Assembly: GCA_038893355.1 (NCBI GenBank)
Contig: JAWARQ010000001.1
Coordinates: forward strand, 32,001 to 96,000
DNA: 64,000 nucleotides
Source: Sulfolobaceae archaeon
GTDB lineage: Archaea; Thermoproteota; Thermoprotei_A; Sulfolobales; Sulfolobaceae
Direction: 5' to 3'
Of this stretch, positions 13,653-58,664 are shown one piece after another; positions within the stretch are counted from its first letter, which is position 1, and every line of letters begins with the position of its first letter. The position numbers and the translations under genes are program-made. The notes below the pieces were generated by a model. The model worked only from the letters and a program-made list of their open reading frames with translations, was not told the origin of the DNA and searched no databases.

Positions 13653-13740
13653 GGACCCGTAGCTCAGCCAGGACAGAGCGCCGGCCTCCTAAAACGCTGA
13701 AGAAAGCCGGTGGTCGCGGGTTCGAATCCCGCCGGGTCCG
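13653..13740 (+). tRNA. tRNA-Arg(CCT) with 13-nt intron (13692-13704)
   Basis: GGACCCG/CGGGTCC acceptor; anticodon arm CCGGC-CT CCT A-[intron]-A-GCCGG; GTTCGAATC T-loop. Confidence 0.92.
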
Positions 13741-13745
13741 CTACT

Positions 13746-42478: not shown

Positions 42479-42992
42479 TTTCTTTTACACCTCTCTTTAT
42501 ATTTACAGCTACACCTCTCTTATATTCCAATAATTCCTCACCAGATATTTTTAATCTTCCAAATCCTATTAACTCATCATTCTTATCAACTACTATTACC
42601 TCATCTCCTGGTCGAAGATTTCTATCCACTTCTATCACATGTTTTGCAAAAACATTATAACCTTTAGATATATATTCTTTTGCCTCGTCTATTATTATTA
42701 CTCGGTACTTTGGTTTATTTGAACATTTTTTAATTCCATTTGCTGAAAGCAAAGTTAAAGAAAATAAATAATCTTGAGCTCTTAATATTAAATATAAATG
42801 TATCTGATTTTTTTCGTTGTCATAAATATAAATGTATCTGATTTTTTTCGTTGAAGGTGATCTTTGTATATATAATACGTCACTGTTCTGTAATATTAAG
42901 CATTCAGCAGTACTATAATCAAACTGGTATTCCGCAACCCACAATAAATGTTCTACTTCTAAATTAGAAGCTTTGTAAATTCCCCTTAACAT
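42459..42992 (-). CDS. PUA-domain protein (split arcTGT C-terminal region)
   Basis: AEYQF, GYNVFAKHV, LRPGDEVIVVD, GVAVNIKRG. Confidence 0.85.
   Translation of the reverse strand: MLRGIYKASNLEVEHLLWVAEYQFDYSTAECLILQNSDVLYIQRSPSTKKIRYIYIYDNEKNQIHLYLILRAQDYLFSLTLLSANGIKKCSNKPKYRVIIIDEAKEYISKGYNVFAKHVIEVDRNLRPGDEVIVVDKNDELIGFGRLKISGEELLEYKRGVAVNIKRGVKENGEDYS
42789..42853 (+). repeat. 31-bp perfect repeat, period 34 (out of frame), in the PUA gene
   Basis: taaatataaatgtatctgatttttttcgttg at 42789-819 and 42823-853. Confidence 0.93.
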
Positions 42993-44170
42993 TATGCAAA
43001 TTTCTCCATTCTCTCTTTAAATACTACTTTCTTAGATATCTTCTTTCTTACTATTTCAATACCCCTTTCTAGGTCTTCTTGAGTTATATAATCTCTATTC
43101 TGTCTTATTGCAATGTATCCTGCCTCCATGCATGAATTCTTTATATCTGCACCTGTAAAACCATCAGTAATCTTAGCTAATTTATTAATATCAATATCAC
43201 CTCTAACATTCATTTTTTTAATGTAAATAGAGAAAATCTCAACTCTTGCCTTCTCATTAGGTAATGGTACTTCAATTATTCTATCAAACCTACCAGGCCT
43301 TAATAATGCAGGATCTAATATATCAATTCTATTTGTAGCTGCTATTATTTTGACCTTATCAAGCGGTTTAAAACCATCTATTTCAGCTAACAGTTGCATA
43401 AGTGTCCTCTGAATTTCTCTCTCACCACTTGTTCCTAAATCTATTCTTCTAGAAGCTATTGCATCAATTTCATCAATAAAGATTATAGAAGGCGCTTTTC
43501 TTCTAGCTAATTCGAATAACTCTCTAACTATTCTTGCACCTTCTCCTACAAACTTTTGCGCTAATTCTGAAGCAACAAGTTGTATAAACGTTGCATTACT
43601 TTCATTAGCTACTGCCTTAGCTAACATTGTCTTTCCAGTCCCTGGAGGACCATAAAGTAAAACACCCTTAGGTGGTTCGATACCTATCTTCTTAAATATC
43701 TCCGGGTTCTTTAACGGCAATTCTACTACTTCTCTTAATTCCCTTATTTGCTCTGATAACCCGCCTATATCACTATAAGTCACATTAGGTTTTTCTATCA
43801 CCTCCATTGATTTAAGCATTGGGTCTTCTCTATTTGGAAGTATGTCAACTATTGTAGAACCTCGTTGATTTAAGGCTACTAGCTTACCTACTTTTAACTC
43901 TTGTAATTTTACATTACTTGCAACATTTACTATTAAATTTGGTCCTGAACTACTCTTTACTACAACTCTACCATCTTGTAAAACATCTAGTACTACTGCT
44001 TCAATCAGAGGAGGACTTAATAATTTTTCTAATTCCGATTTATAATAATTCAGTTCTTTTCTTAAATTTTCTACTTCTAGTTGTAAAGCCTTTACTTTCT
44101 CTTCTAAAATTCTGATAATTTCAATATCATTACTTTCATTTTCTTTATATGTATCAACTTCTCCAAACAA
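42992..44170 (-). CDS. pan: Proteasome-activating nucleotidase
   Basis: Coiled coil, [29 protein letters not shown]. Confidence 0.97.
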
Positions 44171-53190: not shown

Positions 53191-54348
53191 TTACTCCACA
53201 CTCTTAGACTCCTGCTTATGAGTATATATACTCTGTTTTGCCTTAGGTATCTCTGTTTCCTTAACAAATCTATTCTTTAACTTTTCTATTACTACTGGTA
53301 GGGTTGTATATTCCATTTCCGTAGGTTCTAGTCTATGAGGCATAAATGGACCGTGCCTCCTTAAGTAATCGGTAATAATAGCAGCAATTCTTCTGGACTC
53401 ATCAAATATTGGATCATCAAATAGATCTGTAGGACCTATAAGCTTGCCTTCTTTAACATTAAAGCCTAATGCTATTAGTCTCGGTGGTCCATCAAATCTA
53501 GTAGCCCTTGCATCTCTTTGAGAAACTGGCATAAGAGGGCCATAATGACTACCTCTCATCCAACCTGCAACTAAATGTGGAAAAGAAAACGCTTCAAGAA
53601 CTTCTCCTAATGCAGGTAAGCCATGTTGAACTCTAACAATAGCTACCGGATCATCTTTCCCTACATATCTTCCTGCTATTAAGTTTAATCTCTCAACTGA
53701 CACTACAGCAGCAAGTAAATTATCATGTTTTCTATAGATCCTTCTTATAATATATCTACTAGGAGTTCCTATTAGCGCTAATATATCATAAATTTCTTCT
53801 GGTGCTGATAAAGTTACAGATTGACCTTCATATACATCTAAGACTTCAAATTTAAATCCTTCATGCATTGTTGGATCGATTACTAATCCTGCAGTATTAA
53901 ATGGGTCAGCAAAAATTCTATATAACGGTAGGTTAAATGCACCAGGTTCCGTTTTATCAGCCATGAATATAACTATTGGCTCAGAAGGTCTCTCTTCAAT
54001 ATCAAGCTCTGCTACGCCAGGACCTAATCCTCTCACATTTCCAGAAAAAGAGTCACTAAGTAAGTCTTGCCCAGCAGCATATAATCCTAACTCTTTTGCA
54101 ACTCTAGCTGCCTCTTTGAATGCATTCCACGCAACTTCATGTACTGCTGGATTATTTTCACCTTTATTATGAGTCATTATTAATTCTAAATCATCACCTA
54201 CATGAGTAATGAAATAATCAATAATAATATTATTTCTTCTTGCCTCTGCTAATACTTTATTTGCAGCAGCCATTGTATCAGGGTGAACAGTATGATGTCC
54301 CGCTAGGCTGCCAATATCAGCCTTAATTACACTTATAGTAGTTCTCAT
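53191..54348 (-). CDS. fbp: Fructose-1,6-bisphosphate aldolase/phosphatase
   Basis: KADIG, GDD, AGQDLL, DKTEPGA, YVGKDDP, FDGPP. Confidence 0.97.
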
Positions 54349-54384
54349 AAGCTCTATTATAAAAGTTAAAAATTAAAACTCTAA

Positions 54385-56187
54385 CTACTCTCTAGCATAC
54401 TCTAATGAGTAGTATTCTCCTTTCTCCTTTTGAAGTCTATCCAAATAACTTCCCTCTTTATTAATTCTTGGCCTACCTGTTTCAATATCTCTTCTAAAAG
54501 TTATTTGAACTTCTTTGAGAAATCTATTCATACCTTCTTTTACAGACATTATTTTTGAACCTATACCATAAATAGCAGGAACTCCAGTAAATACCATTAA
54601 TTTATCTGCAATATAATTATGTATTGCAAGATCATGTTCTACTACTATACATATAACGTTTCTCTCTCTCGTCACCCTTTTTATCGCCTTAGCTACAATA
54701 TATCTCTCCTCCACATCCAAGTATGATGATGGTTCGTCAAATAAGTAAATATCAGCATCCCTTGCTAAAGCAGCAGCAATAGTAACCTTCTGCAACTCAC
54801 CACCACTCAGTTCTTTAACATTAGCTTCAAGAAGTCTATGAATCCCTAGCCTTCTTATTACTTCCTCAAAAAACCAAGAAGAGGTAGAAAGTGCGTCTTT
54901 ACTTACTTCTTCTAAAAATTTCTGAACAGTTCCATCATAATTTGGTTCAATTTTTTGTGGCTTATAAGCTAATCTTAGTGGTTGAGGATATATATAGCCC
55001 TCATCAGGCTCTAATTCTCCTGCCAAAATTCTTATAAAAGTAGTTTTGCCTATTCCATTTCTGCCTAGTATACCAATTACCTCACCGCCTTTGGCCTCAC
55101 CTTCTTCTACTTCGAGTTCAAAAGAATCTAATTTTTTCTTTATTTTAGACCATTTTAATAATAATTTATTATTATTATTTATATCAAATTCACTAAAATC
55201 TCTAATTACAAATTTTATTTCATCTTCTCTAATCTTCATATTCTCTGCTGGTAAGAATCCCCTTAGAAAATTATTTATACCACTTCTTGCTGCGTAGGTT
55301 TTTGAAACTTTTCCATAAACTCCTGACTCTCCATAAATAATATTAACATAGTCCACTAAGTAATCTAAGATAACTAGATCATGTTCTACTATGAGAGTAT
55401 ATTTACCTTTAGTGAATTCCTTTATAGTCTTTGCCATATTCAATCTTTCCCTAATATCTAAGTATGATGATGGTTCGTCAAATAAGTAAATATCAGCATC
55501 CCTTGCTAAAGCAGCAGCAATAGTAACCTTCTGCAACTCACCACCACTTAAAGTCCTTATTTCCTTATTCCAAAAATTCTCCATATTCAATGTGACTTTA
55601 ATATCCTTTATTATTCCCCTCTCATCTATTCTAGAAAGAACCGATGAAACTTCACCTTTTAAATACCTTGTTAATGCTTCAACGTACTGTATCTTATGAA
55701 CTACTCTTAATTTTTTAGAATATAATTGCGAGAAATAATTATAAATCTCTCGACCTTTAAATCTTCTTAGAACCTCATCAATCGATGGTTTATATGAAGG
55801 GTCTCCGAAGTTTGGTATTAATTCACCAGAAATTATTTTTAAAATAGTAGTTTTTCCTGTTCCGTTTTTACCAATTATACCAATGATACTTCCGCTTTTG
55901 GGTACCGGTAATCCAAATAACTCAAATCCGTTTATCCTATATCTATGTATTATTTCACCGGAATATTGATCTGGTAAATTAACTATTGAAATTGCTTGAA
56001 ATGGGCACTTCTTAACGCAAATACCGCAGCCAATACAAGTCTCCTCATATATTATTGGCTTCCCTTTAACAATCTCAGAAAGTTCAATAGCTTTAGAACC
56101 GGATCTATTTATTGGGCAAAAATTAATACATTCAATATTACACTTCTGAGGTTTACAAAAGTCATAATTTATAACAGCAACTCTCAA
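54385..56187 (-). CDS. rli: ABCE1/RLI ribosome recycling ATPase
   Basis: N-terminal Fe-S cysteines (CIGCGICVKKCP), two NBDs, TGRPRINK. Confidence 0.97.
   Translation of the reverse strand: MRVAVINYDFCKPQKCNIECINFCPINRSGSKAIELSEIVKGKPIIYEETCIGCGICVKKCPFQAISIVNLPDQYSGEIIHRYRINGFELFGLPVPKSGSIIGIIGKNGTGKTTILKIISGELIPNFGDPSYKPSIDEVLRRFKGREIYNYFSQLYSKKLRVVHKIQYVEALTRYLKGEVSSVLSRIDERGIIKDIKVTLNMENFWNKEIRTLSGGELQKVTIAAALARDADIYLFDEPSSYLDIRERLNMAKTIKEFTKGKYTLIVEHDLVILDYLVDYVNIIYGESGVYGKVSKTYAARSGINNFLRGFLPAENMKIREDEIKFVIRDFSEFDINNNNKLLLKWSKIKKKLDSFELEVEEGEAKGGEVIGILGRNGIGKTTFIRILAGELEPDEGYIYPQPLRLAYKPQKIEPNYDGTVQKFLEEVSKDALSTSSWFFEEVIRRLGIHRLLEANVKELSGGELQKVTIAAALARDADIYLFDEPSSYLDVEERYIVAKAIKRVTRERNVICIVVEHDLAIHNYIADKLMVFTGVPAIYGIGSKIMSVKEGMNRFLKEVQITFRRDIETGRPRINKEGSYLDRLQKEKGEYYSLEYARE
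54719..55548 (-). repeat. 89-bp perfect repeat between NBD2 (54719-54807) and NBD1 (55460-55548) of ABCE1
   Basis: Identical DNA encoding SGGELQKVTIAAALARDADIYLFDEPSSYL. Confidence 0.95.
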
Positions 56188-56234
56188 AGAATTTCCCTTT
56201 TATATAATTACTAAAAAGCGGATTAAAAATTGGT

Positions 56235-56339
56235 TTACCATTCTTCTTCTAATTCTTCTTCTTCCCAATCCTCTTCCTCAAATTCCTCTTCTTCTAATTC
56301 TTCTTCTAACTCCTCCTCTTCCCAATCCTCTTCAAACAT
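56235..56339 (-). CDS. Hyper-acidic 34-aa micro-protein (not in ORF track)
   Basis: MFEEDWEEEELEEELEEEEFEEEDWEEEELEEEW*; GGTG RBS ~8 nt upstream; BRE/TATA-like GAAAATTATAAG at ~56375-56386. Confidence 0.7.
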   Translation of the reverse strand: MFEEDWEEEELEEELEEEEFEEEDWEEEELEEEW

Positions 56340-56529
56340 TACGCATGCACCTAACAACCCTTAAATTCCTAGTACTTATAATTTTCTATTCCTAAATTCA
56401 AGTTAATTATAATGAAGACTTTATCGTCAAGTTATACTTGATAATAATTTTTTTAAGATATTATTTATATCTTATAAAATATTATATCAAGTATTTTTAT
56501 ATAAATTTTATAATTATAGCATCATTTCC

Positions 56530-56712
56530 TATAAATTGGAAATGTTGAACGGTGAGATAAAGGAAACTTACATCGGCCCTTTAATTGGCGTCGTCGAGAC
56601 TTACATTAAATTGGAAAAATAGGAGCGGGGGTCTGGGGTTGTCCCCCAGTGAGGGTGTCCCCTCACAGCGGACCCGCCGGGATTCGAACCCGGGACCTTG
56701 GGCTCCGCAGGC
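56530..56712 (+). pseudogene. Degenerate SSV-type integrase N-terminal scar at tRNA-Arg
   Basis: YKLEMLNGEIKETYIGPLIGVVETYIKLEK*, then a frameshifted ADPPGFEPGT overlapping the tRNA 3' half. Confidence 0.75.
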
Positions 56713-56743
56713 CCACGCTCTATCCTGGCTGAGCTACGGGTCC
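56669..56743 (-). tRNA. tRNA-Arg(GCG)
   Basis: Reverse complement GGACCCG...TGGGC-CT GCG GA-GCCCA...CGGGTCCG. Confidence 0.95.
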
Positions 56744-56750
56744 CCTATTA

Positions 56751-58664
56751 CTACATCCTCTGAAGGGGTTTTATTCCTAACACTTTTAATCCATTACGTA
56801 AAACTATTTCTACTCCCTTAACTATATGTAATCTTAATTGCCTCTTTGAATTATCTGGTTCTTGTAAGACTCTTTCCTTATCATACCAGCGGTTAAAAAT
56901 ATCAGCAATATTTCTCAGGTAGGAAATAAGATCTTCTGGCCTTAATTCATCAGCAACCTTCTCAAAAACTTCAGGAAATTTAGCTATTTCGATTAGTATC
57001 TTTCTCTTTTCACCTACCAAATCATTAAAATCAACTAAATTTAATTCCAATTTTTCATTGGACTTCGAAAGGATATTATATGCTCTGGCATAAGTATACT
57101 GTAGATATGGCCCACTACTTTGTGATAGGTCTAGAGACGTTTCAACACTGAATGATACCGGCTTATTAGCGGAAACTTGCAATATCGAGTACCTAATAGC
57201 AGAGCTTATTATATGATCAATAATATCACTACTACTCTCTTTATTTATCTTAGTAGTAGCAACTATCTTATATTTATCGTATAATTCATCTAAAGATAAG
57301 TATCTTCCCCTTCGCCCACTCATTTTATATCCTTGTAAACTTACCATCCCATAAGAATAATGTATTAGATTCGAAGCAAATTCTGGATAACCTAGCAAAT
57401 ATAGAGCTGCCCTAAGCTGTATTTGGGGAATATATTGTTGTTCCGCTATTACATTAATAACAACATCTGCCCCATATTTTTTAAACTTGTACAATGTATA
57501 TGCTATATCCCTAACGGTATATAGAGTAGAACCATCTGATCTAAATACTATGAGGGGCGGCACTTCTAACCCTTTAGGTATTCTTAATCTTTCTCTTATC
57601 TCCTCGTCCAGAAAATCGTTTAAGTTTAATGCTAATGTTCCTTTATATTCAATCTTTATTAATGAATTCTTTATCCTATCTAAAACTTCATTCATATATT
57701 CACTCCATACGACTTCGCTTTCATAATCCATTCCATCAAAAGATATGTCAAGCTTAGAGAGACTTTCTAAGAAACCTCTTAAAATTAAATCCACATACTT
57801 TCTTACAATTTTAATAATTCCTTCATTCTTATTTTCGTATAATCTCATAATTTCAGAAATTTCCTCTTCAGCACGATCTCCTCTTATATTTAACTCTTCA
57901 GCCAATTTATCAAATATCTGTGGATCTCTATCTCTTAGTTCTTTTGCAATTACAACTAATTCGTCTAACTTTCCTTGTAATTCCTTAAACTTCTCATTTA
58001 TCTCATTCATTTTTTCTAACTGCTTTTTAATATTCCTGACCTCAAGAAGAACATTTATTATTGCATAAACTAGACCTAACCAATGATCAACCTTAATATT
58101 ACTTGGTGGATCTGGATATCCCAAAAGTTTTAACGCATATATTAAAATTGCTACTTGCCTACCTACATCATTAACATAAAATCTGATAATAACATTATGA
58201 CCCCTATACTTTAGCAATCTAGCAATAGTATCACCTAGCACTGCATTTCTTAAATGACCTAAGTGAAGAGGATGGACAGGATTTGCACTAGTATGCTCTA
58301 CAATATATTTTTTTGGTTTATCAGTCTTATTAATTCCATAATTTTCATTAATATTTGAATAAATATAAAGAAATAACTCTTTTTCATTTATTATAGAATT
58401 TATAAAAATATCTTTAATATCTATTTTTTTAATAAATTTAGTTTTAATAGTTTTTAGTAATTCTAAATTTAAAATATCTTTTTTACCTAATTTTGGAATT
58501 GGTAAAGCTAAATCTCCAAAGGTTTCGTCAGGAGGATATTCTATTAATTTAATTATTGTTTCGCTTTTAACTCCAAATCTATTTGAAATTGCTTCAGCAA
58601 AATCTCTCTTAACTTCCAGTATAGGATTCAAAGTGTTCAATTCACCTAAATTCTTTTTAACCAT
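56751..58664 (-). CDS. argS: Arginyl-tRNA synthetase
   Basis: EHTSANPVHPLHLGHLRN, KMSGRRG, GPYLQYTYARA, C-terminal RM. Confidence 0.97.
   Translation of the reverse strand: MVKKNLGELNTLNPILEVKRDFAEAISNRFGVKSETIIKLIEYPPDETFGDLALPIPKLGKKDILNLELLKTIKTKFIKKIDIKDIFINSIINEKELFLYIYSNINENYGINKTDKPKKYIVEHTSANPVHPLHLGHLRNAVLGDTIARLLKYRGHNVIIRFYVNDVGRQVAILIYALKLLGYPDPPSNIKVDHWLGLVYAIINVLLEVRNIKKQLEKMNEINEKFKELQGKLDELVVIAKELRDRDPQIFDKLAEELNIRGDRAEEEISEIMRLYENKNEGIIKIVRKYVDLILRGFLESLSKLDISFDGMDYESEVVWSEYMNEVLDRIKNSLIKIEYKGTLALNLNDFLDEEIRERLRIPKGLEVPPLIVFRSDGSTLYTVRDIAYTLYKFKKYGADVVINVIAEQQYIPQIQLRAALYLLGYPEFASNLIHYSYGMVSLQGYKMSGRRGRYLSLDELYDKYKIVATTKINKESSSDIIDHIISSAIRYSILQVSANKPVSFSVETSLDLSQSSGPYLQYTYARAYNILSKSNEKLELNLVDFNDLVGEKRKILIEIAKFPEVFEKVADELRPEDLISYLRNIADIFNRWYDKERVLQEPDNSKRQLRLHIVKGVEIVLRNGLKVLGIKPLQRM

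Follow-up and report, generated by a model that had tools for sequence, protein, structure and literature searches.

The window analysed here, a stretch of 64,000 nucleotides (nt) from a Sulfolobaceae archaeon (GenBank assembly GCA_038893355.1, contig JAWARQ010000001.1, positions 32,001 to 96,000 of the forward strand), carries on its minus strand a very short open reading frame (ORF) directly upstream of the gene for ABCE1. The results showed gene signals around this ORF, its conservation in relatives, its linkage to ABCE1 and the survival of copies which lie away from ABCE1, and we regard the frame with high confidence as a genuine, unannotated micro-gene that is deeply conserved. For its hyper-acidic product, which ends in tryptophan, we favour a role as a trans-acting, disordered acidic/aromatic ligand of ABCE1 or of the ribosome-recycling machinery, a reading which is held tentatively and at somewhat less than even confidence. 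The features on which the analysis turns are given below as positions of the window.

56235..56339, minus strand: micro-gene ORF of 34 codons plus TAA, product MFEEDWEEEELEEELEEEEFEEEDWEEEELEEEW (sequence read and translation)
56348..56351, minus strand: Shine-Dalgarno (SD) site GGTG, 8 nt 5' of the ATG (sequence read)
56372..56386, minus strand: box GAAAATTATAAGTAC resembling a B recognition element and TATA box (BRE/TATA), putative promoter of the micro-gene (sequence read)
56188..56234, minus strand: 47-nt spacer from the micro-gene stop to the TTG of ABCE1, with two T5 runs (56229-56225 and 56217-56213) and an A/T box
54385..56187, minus strand: ABCE1 (RNase L inhibitor / Rli1 homologue), 600 amino acids (aa), TTG start at 56187 (Pfam, structure match)

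The start codon ATG occupies 56339-56337, the final codon TGG 56240-56238 and the stop codon TAA 56237-56235. A recount of MFEEDWEEEELEEELEEEEFEEEDWEEEELEEEW gave 23 Glu, 2 Asp, 3 Trp, 2 Phe, 3 Leu and 1 Met, i.e., 25 acidic residues out of 34 with no Lys, Arg, His or Gly, a FEE(E)DWEEEEL unit in duplicate (residues 2-11 and 20-30) and the C-terminus EEEW, which confirmed the hyper-acidic frame with a repeated unit and a terminal Trp described in the original prediction from which this analysis started. The other elements named there, mixed GAA/GAG codons (16 GAA and 7 GAG for Glu, both Asp codons being GAT), the GGTG site, the BRE/TATA-like box and the 47-nt distance to ABCE1, were all found on the minus strand, and the range 56235-56390 that it gave comprises the ORF plus its promoter. 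The micro-gene is the sole acid-tailed ORF with an aromatic end in the 1.40 Mb assembly and is single-copy. The spacer may contain an oligo-T terminator of the micro-gene which overlaps the putative TATA box of a leaderless ABCE1 transcript. In the downstream protein Pfam identified Fer4_RLI, Fer4 and a pair of ABC_tran domains; solved chains of archaeal ABCE1 match it (e.g., 6tmf_d, E 1.7e-285), and it is 50-70% identical to its orthologues in 40 relatives.

Conservation and reading frame of the micro-gene

When ABCE1 was used as the anchor in these 40 relatives, which form the family/order sample, 30 loci were returned and scanned, the window's own included, and 26 of them were found to carry, 5' of ABCE1 and in its orientation, a micro-ORF built in the same way (M-hydrophobic-aromatic, then stretches of Glu/Asp with interspersed Trp, and Trp last). 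The peptides of the relatives read M-(x)-F-EEDW...EEEW, and the distance from the end of the micro-ORF to ABCE1 was 38-81 nt in 21 of the 26 loci, 109-273 nt in L025, L027, L028 and L030, and about 680 nt in L024. One further locus (L026) has the micro-ORF on the opposite strand, approximately 1.4 kb from ABCE1, and three of the 30 (L006, L009 and L029) have no micro-ORF within 1.5 kb of ABCE1; the genomes of these three carry one micro-ORF elsewhere according to a DNA pattern that gave one match per positive-control genome and zero in its reversed form.

The signals around the frame are kept as well. GGTG stands 6-9 nt 5' of the chosen start in nearly all relatives, with a TATA-like box further 5', which in Sulfolobaceae reads GAAAATTATAAGTAC, AAAAAAATAAGTA or AATTTTTTAAG and lies about 35-45 nt 5' of the micro-ORF start; the box GAAAATTATAAGTAC is presumably the promoter of the micro-gene. 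The loci of Bathyarchaeia have the full GGAGGTGA before the ATG, and over 141 distinct members of the family an SD-like site was scored in 105 by an automatic rule which often chose a start too far upstream. In Sulfolobaceae the gap between micro-ORF and ABCE1 (40-80 nt) is rich in T and contains TATA-like boxes, a GGTG often stands 5' of ABCE1, and the T-runs and TATA-like TTTATAAC boxes in the gaps of the relatives are comparable to those of the window. The gap in Bathyarchaeia has a median of about 130 nt, and in 45 such gaps read by eye a T-run such as ATTTTTCTTTT follows about 25 nt past the stop and a TTTATAAC box precedes the ABCE1 ATG by about 35 nt, an arrangement which probably represents a terminator followed by ABCE1's own promoter, with read-through possible.

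Two further observations were made in this region. Many Sulfolobaceae (the window and L004-L023) have TTG or GTG as the start codon of ABCE1, which is unusual for an essential, abundant factor and compatible with regulated initiation. A motif, GCCGTCACCACTCATCAT, is conserved between the micro-ORF and ABCE1 in L025, L027, L030, L106, L108, L119, L124 and L128, and is found in the other orientation 5' of ABCE1 in L029; its reverse complement in L027 resembles a C box (ATGATGA) followed by a 12-nt guide and CTGA, so the motif may be a C/D-box small RNA (sRNA) gene on the opposite strand. No Rfam match to it was obtained in the five loci tested.

The members of the family are 20-42 codons long, contain no basic residues, and carry a Trp (or Phe/Leu) every 4-9 residues between Glu/Asp runs. 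The last residue is Trp in 138 of the 141 members, Phe in 1 and Glu in 2, the stop codons are TAA in 101, TAG in 22 and TGA in 18, and the C-terminus is acidic-acidic-Trp (or Phe) in 139. The N-terminal M-[IV]-F is conserved, and the members from Bathyarchaeia have a mid-peptide Gly, with at most one or two Gly in the peptide.

A frame of this composition could also be no gene at all, and instead a simple repeat rich in GAA/GAG, the mirror image of a Ser-rich antisense ORF or a mobile-element remnant, an explanation which appears highly improbable to us. An antisense Ser-rich frame is indeed open in the window (56230-56364, plus strand) and likewise in 131/141 members, and because it shares third codon positions with the Glu frame, the synonymous test is not decisive between sense and antisense: close pairs are distinguished almost exclusively by third codon positions, and the differences were synonymous in 8/8 (L013/L014), 3/3 (L007/L008) and 10/12 cases (L004/L011), with diverging flanks. 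However, the openness of the antisense frame follows from composition alone, and the Glu/Trp frame was chosen because the SD and start, the stop right past the last Trp (in 138/141 members), the distinction between Asp and Glu and the promoter-like box are conserved. The SD, start, stop and promoter-like box are kept for the Glu/Trp frame only, and the positions of Asp versus Glu are retained, e.g., the Asp before Trp in Sulfolobaceae members. Furthermore, the gene is single-copy in this genome, and none of the 15 pattern matches in viral contigs was family-like. The view that the ORF is a real gene rather than a microsatellite was therefore borne out by signals conserved across the phylum, and the contrary possibility raised alongside it, that the ORF would be absent from relatives or be debris of a mobile element, was contradicted by its wide occurrence in relatives and by the viral contigs.

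Distribution and copies away from ABCE1

For the census, the DNA pattern GANGANTGGN{0,3}GANGANN{0,80}GANGANGANTKBTRR was used, which matched 256 of the 401 genomes sampled in the phylum, with matches of the reversed control in 3 genomes. One large family gave 0/63, and at three ABCE1 loci from this or a neighbour family a sequence resembling a 5S rRNA gene stands upstream and no micro-ORF is present. In L191, L192 and L197, of the pattern-negative families f14 and f58, such a sequence was seen by eye directly 5' of ABCE1 on the opposite strand, with no micro-ORF. A Phe-based variant, MAEEEELEEFEEFEEFEELEEFEEF, was found in one pattern-negative family (L194), so the pattern undercounts. The 30 loci fetched at the phylum level all contained an ORF of 20-35 codons of the type M-[IVM]-[FY]-acid/Trp...EEEW, and 21 of these are followed by ABCE1 in the same orientation.

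When a more stringent pattern was applied to all prokaryotes, each species being represented by a single genome, at least 120 stretches matched, and names are given for 80 of them. Among these 80, the names are mostly those of Bathyarchaeia, with Sulfolobales/Desulfurococcales (Acidianus, Aramenus, Thermogladius, Pyrodictium, Hyperthermus and Ignisphaera) and 'Thermoprotei' in addition; about 11 of the matches listed are not family-like, namely those from bacteria and metagenome-assembled genomes (MAGs) labelled Nanoarchaeia (L069) and Hadarchaeota (L121), and these are bare short hits or the tails of longer or unrelated frames. The matches listed include 101 family-like loci, 82 of which are informative, being flanked by 1.5 kb or more on each side or showing a match to ABCE1, and 19 too short. 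Among these 82, ABCE1 follows the micro-ORF in the same orientation in 72, is divergent in 4 and absent in 6. The synteny upstream of ABCE1 that the original prediction had proposed to examine is thus present both in the family/order sample and among these listed loci, and, by the names of the matches, the family is spread through one archaeal phylum, Thermoproteota. In a second archaeal phylum, that of the Hadarchaeota-labelled genome, 0/61 genomes matched the pattern, and no micro-ORF adjoins ABCE1 in L208 and L209. The locus and look-alike acidic ORFs are also present in hot-spring metagenomes (four DNA contig sets), whereas no RNA run was found to contain the locus. As separate observations, L121 encodes a longer zinc-ribbon-like protein with the C-terminal ...EAEEDYWGWEEEEW, i.e., an acidic Trp tail fused to a domain, and a MAG labelled Krumholzibacteriaceae bacterium (L097, genome G418) has a family-like micro-ORF together with an ABCE1 49% identical to that of the window; this bin is probably archaeal or contaminated.

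Copies that lie away from ABCE1 keep the design of the family. The unlinked copies G007, G018 and G029 have the SD, the N-terminal aromatic residue and the terminal Trp intact, and that of G029 still adjoins Cgi121; in genus g106 there are 2-3 paralogues of the micro-gene, with ABCE1 elsewhere; and the fully flanked unlinked copies of L074, L090, L102, L113, L140 and L146 retain the family features among varied neighbours. Neighbours elsewhere in the family include genes for Cgi121, THUMP, Sua5, Rad51-like proteins and asparaginase, and unlinked copies were also found near a NifS/IscS-type cysteine desulfurase in L046-L048 (one genus) and near an Mrp/NUBPL-type P-loop NTPase in L074. That the copies away from ABCE1 stay intact is the main reason for which a product acting in trans is favoured.

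The same evidence bears on a cis-acting explanation, in which the act of translation is what matters. The acidic run, which falls in the first 30 codons, would destabilise the ribosome (intrinsic ribosome destabilisation) or pause it and set the traffic to the ABCE1 start 40-200 nt downstream, either through small subunits staying on the mRNA or through polymerase uncoupling at the T-run, and ABCE1 synthesis would be tied to splitting capacity. We consider this unlikely, yet it is a serious rival, and points can be named on both sides. The ORF is placed directly 5' of ABCE1 on the same strand (26/30 and, among the matches listed, 72/82), it is 20-42 codons long and acidic from codon 2-4 on, and there are T-runs past the stop, GGTG before ABCE1 and weak TTG/GTG starts of ABCE1 in many Sulfolobaceae. 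Precedents exist in the available parts of the literature, according to which acidic N-terminal runs destabilise ribosomes and require dedicated small-subunit recycling (PMC12673854; PMC9718836), and EttA, a ribosomal ABC-F ATPase with twin nucleotide-binding domains (NBDs), rescues ribosomes that pause at acidic residues among the first 30 and acts through the MgtL leader (PMC11282234). The likeness to an MgtL-type leader with EttA lies in a short ORF, acidic in its first 30 codons, upstream of a regulated gene, and in a twin-NBD ABC ATPase (PMC11282234, in the part available); the ORF of the window, 34 codons long in all, has this feature, its acidic residues starting at codon 3. However, that system is bacterial, whereas here it is the ABC ATPase that the downstream gene encodes, and the ORF has a much higher acidic content, carries a conserved Trp and survives unlinked. 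An obligate leader position was rejected, the ORF being unlinked or divergent in 10/82 informative listed loci, in G007, G018 and G029 and in genus g106. Intact unlinked copies occur in several independent lineages with unrelated downstream genes, where a pure leader should decay, and 4/82 informative listed loci are divergent from ABCE1. In Bathyarchaeia the T-run and the TTTATAAC box of ABCE1 suggest separate transcripts, and mere composition does not account for the near-invariant terminal Trp, the M-[IV]-F start or the Gly in the middle of the peptides from Bathyarchaeia.

A possible ligand of ABCE1 and its alternatives

No known family fits the micro-protein, which may nonetheless work like known acidic-aromatic docking modules. 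The peptide of the window matched 0 Pfam families at E<=0.01, and 21 members searched at E<=10 gave two unrelated DUF matches only, with E of about 3 and one member each. An exact look-up in a collection of 15 billion proteins found none of 10 member sequences, the window's included, with the chosen starts only. Profile tools are blind to the peptide, as a hidden Markov model of the 21 members missed even the positive-control genomes, and blanks from them are uninformative; this includes the 40-aa TTG-start form, for which none of 144 candidates scored. In the ESM Atlas the best scores, 0.75-0.78, were below the usable range. No description of the peptide family was found in the literature, and none of the papers searched contains the strings EEDWEEE, WEEEEW, EEWEEEEW, FEEDWEE or 'saci_0673'. 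The ABCE1 of S. acidocaldarius is Saci_0672 (PMC6335949), and a supplement table of the atlas of this species (PMC12817955) passes from Saci_0671 (fbp) and Saci_0672 to Saci_0674, Saci_0673 being missing where the micro-ORF would be expected.

In the favoured reading, we infer that the ORF is translated into a free peptide of 20-42 residues, made up of Met, one or two hydrophobic/aromatic residues, Glu/Asp runs with Trp and a final Trp-COOH, and that this peptide acts in trans. Docking, through the aromatic side chains of the peptide and the Trp at its C-terminus, would take place in a basic-rimmed hydrophobic groove on ABCE1 or on the ABCE1-bound small subunit, the candidate sites being the NBD1 cavity, which takes the tail of the stalk protein aP1 and, in eukaryotes, the N-terminal region of eIF3j, or the iron-sulfur (Fe-S) domain. 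Such docking would tune the recruitment, ATPase activity or release of ABCE1.

Three known systems are compared with the peptide here. As background for the first, eIF3j, a eukaryotic accessory factor of ABCE1 in recycling and initiation, is about 260 residues long, forms a dimeric helical bundle and has a basic tail at its C-terminus; its acidic motif, as ElAntak reportedly described in 2010, is built around a conserved Trp, and no eIF3j is known from archaea. [quoted passage not shown] The archaeal peptide differs, being 20-42 residues long, devoid of basic residues and unmatched in Pfam; membership of the eIF3j/Hcr1 family, which has a helical dimerisation bundle and a basic tail, was rejected, as there is no Pfam match and the peptide of the window has 34 residues and lacks Lys, Arg and His. 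In the second comparison, the C-terminal acidic/hydrophobic peptide of aP1 is reported, in the portion of the source available, to bind the hydrophobic cavity of NBD1 of archaeal ABCE1 and to activate ABCE1 (PMC6125642), and like the micro-protein it is an acidic, flexible segment with a hydrophobic/aromatic end. However, the tail of aP1 is fixed to the ribosome, includes Lys and forms an L-x-x-L-F-G helix, whereas the micro-protein is free-standing, Trp-based and ends in Trp-COOH. Stalk P-protein (Ribosomal_60s) membership was likewise rejected, there being no Pfam match and no terminal L-x-x-L-F-G motif, and the real aP1 of this genome was found separately, with the C-terminus SGLSSLFG. An untethered peptide of acidic and aromatic residues could occupy this aP1/eIF3j-type site on NBD1 or compete for it.

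The third comparison, with Lto1 and the cytosolic iron-sulfur assembly (CIA) pathway, leads to a different role, that of an adaptor for Fe-S maturation, in which a [D/E]-Trp-COOH tail would be recognised by an Fe-S delivery protein and the acidic remainder of the peptide would bind the basic Fe-S domain of ABCE1 in its apo form; by analogy this is conceivable, and rather unlikely in our judgement. A protein with the domain PF01883, which we take to be the family to which CIAO2B belongs, is encoded in this genome, but PF01883 is present in 13/14 control genomes as well and is hence non-discriminating. According to the accessible parts of the reports, the eukaryotic CIA targeting signal is [LIM]-[DES]-[WF]-COO- (PMC10245660), the C-terminal Trp of Lto1 serves specifically to deliver Rli1/ABCE1 to the CIA targeting complex (PMC4523923), and the pocket for the targeting tail lies between CIAO1 and CIAO2B (PMC12910081). 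The micro-protein shares the acidic residue followed by a C-terminal Trp/Phe (W in 138/141 members and F in 1/141, after E or D, the acidic-acidic-Trp/Phe ending being that of 139/141) and the association with an Fe-S protein, Rli1/ABCE1, as described in part of these sources (PMC4523923; PMC10245660). Moreover, the unlinked copies near a desulfurase (L046-L048) and an Mrp/NUBPL-type NTPase (L074) would suit such a role, and the ABCE1 Fe-S domain is more basic in carriers: its mean charge is +2.6 with a linked micro-gene (n=67) versus -0.8 without one (n=9), a difference that is weak and confounded by phylogeny. On the other hand, the full Lto1/CIA signal was rejected, the antepenultimate residue being Glu (or Asp) and not Leu, Ile or Met, and the deca-GX3 motif, which pairs with Yae1, being absent from a window peptide which has no Gly; the two Fe-S neighbours were picked post hoc among about 12 varied neighbourhoods; the receptor CIAO1-CIAO2B-MMS19 is eukaryotic (PMC12910081, as far as available); and prokaryotic Fe-S proteins are stated, in the available text, not to be enriched in C-terminal Trp/Phe (PMC10245660).

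The composition by itself, extreme as it is with 25/34 acidic and no basic residues, would also suit a general polyanion, i.e., a nucleic-acid mimic, a charge chaperone for basic proteins (ribosomal, chromatin, SSB, RNA polymerase) or a DSS1/Sem1-like adaptor, whose adjacency to ABCE1 would be mere co-expression with translation genes. The neighbours are often translation-related (Cgi121, Sua5, THUMP), and the acidic stretches around Trp recall DSS1/Sem1, a small, very acidic and disordered protein with Trp within acidic runs, whose partners are of the proteasome-lid, BRCA2/RPA or TREX-2 type. We nevertheless judge this quite improbable, as a phylum-wide pairing with one gene, ABCE1, is unexpected for a general chaperone. 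The kinship to Sem1/DSS1 suggested in the original prediction was not supported, no DSS1_SEM1 or other relevant Pfam profile being matched by any of the 21 members even at E<=10; the peptide is half the length, and its gene is conserved next to ABCE1 rather than next to genes of the proteasome or of recombination. The accompanying Urm1/proteasome context stands for the window, in which both Urm1 and PAN are encoded, but not elsewhere, where they are not conserved neighbours. The notion of a disordered adaptor as such is reasonable.

Several points weigh against the trans-acting ligand of ABCE1. The basic ABCE1 columns which separate carriers from non-carriers are K117 and R329 only, and these are confounded by phylogeny. 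AlphaFold2 gives the peptide as a single helix with a pLDDT of 93, with the aromatics not on one face by our own count; poly-Glu helices are perhaps over-predicted, and little weight is given to this model. As the peptide is of low complexity, what has been conserved could be a property of the nascent chain or of the mRNA rather than of a free peptide, and the synonymous-change counts do not distinguish the Glu frame from the Ser-rich one on the antisense strand. The tight same-strand placement, the SD-like sites before ABCE1 and its TTG/GTG starts also fit a cis leader ORF.

Genomic surroundings and biological meaning

On the same strand, ABCE1 is followed by the genes for FBPase, S17e, Urm1 and Cgi121, and the PAN ATPase is encoded in the window at 42992-44170. 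Upstream of the micro-gene there is an A+T-rich spacer of 330 nt, beyond which lie two further features.

56668-56743, minus strand: tRNA-Arg(GCG), directly 3' of the ArgRS gene
56751-58664, minus strand: arginyl-tRNA synthetase (ArgRS) gene

Rfam matched this tRNA alone over 54000-58000 of the window. Elsewhere in the window, ARAGORN called a tRNA of undetermined type at 13653-13741 (plus strand) with the four-base anticodon ctaa, perhaps a misread intron-containing tRNA.

ABCE1 is essential in archaea and eukaryotes, and no accessory factor of it comparable to eIF3j or Yae1-Lto1 is known from archaea. It is possible, if on the whole doubtful, that Thermoproteota have a dedicated peptide partner of ABCE1, a separate gene product with the tasks which in eukaryotes fall to acidic-Trp modules inside larger proteins (the N-terminal region of eIF3j in recycling and the hand-over to initiation, the C-terminal Trp of Lto1 in Fe-S loading), and that the same gene could also report ribosome-rescue capacity to ABCE1 expression, since its own synthesis requires the translation of an extreme, hard-to-translate acidic sequence. 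If this is true, the micro-protein would be a missing ABCE1-linked component, kept across Bathyarchaeia and Thermoprotei and invisible to gene callers as well as to trypsin-based proteomics, the latter because it contains no Lys or Arg. In general, the analysis showed that very short ORFs of low complexity can be deeply conserved, and that a simple DNA pattern allows their annotation.

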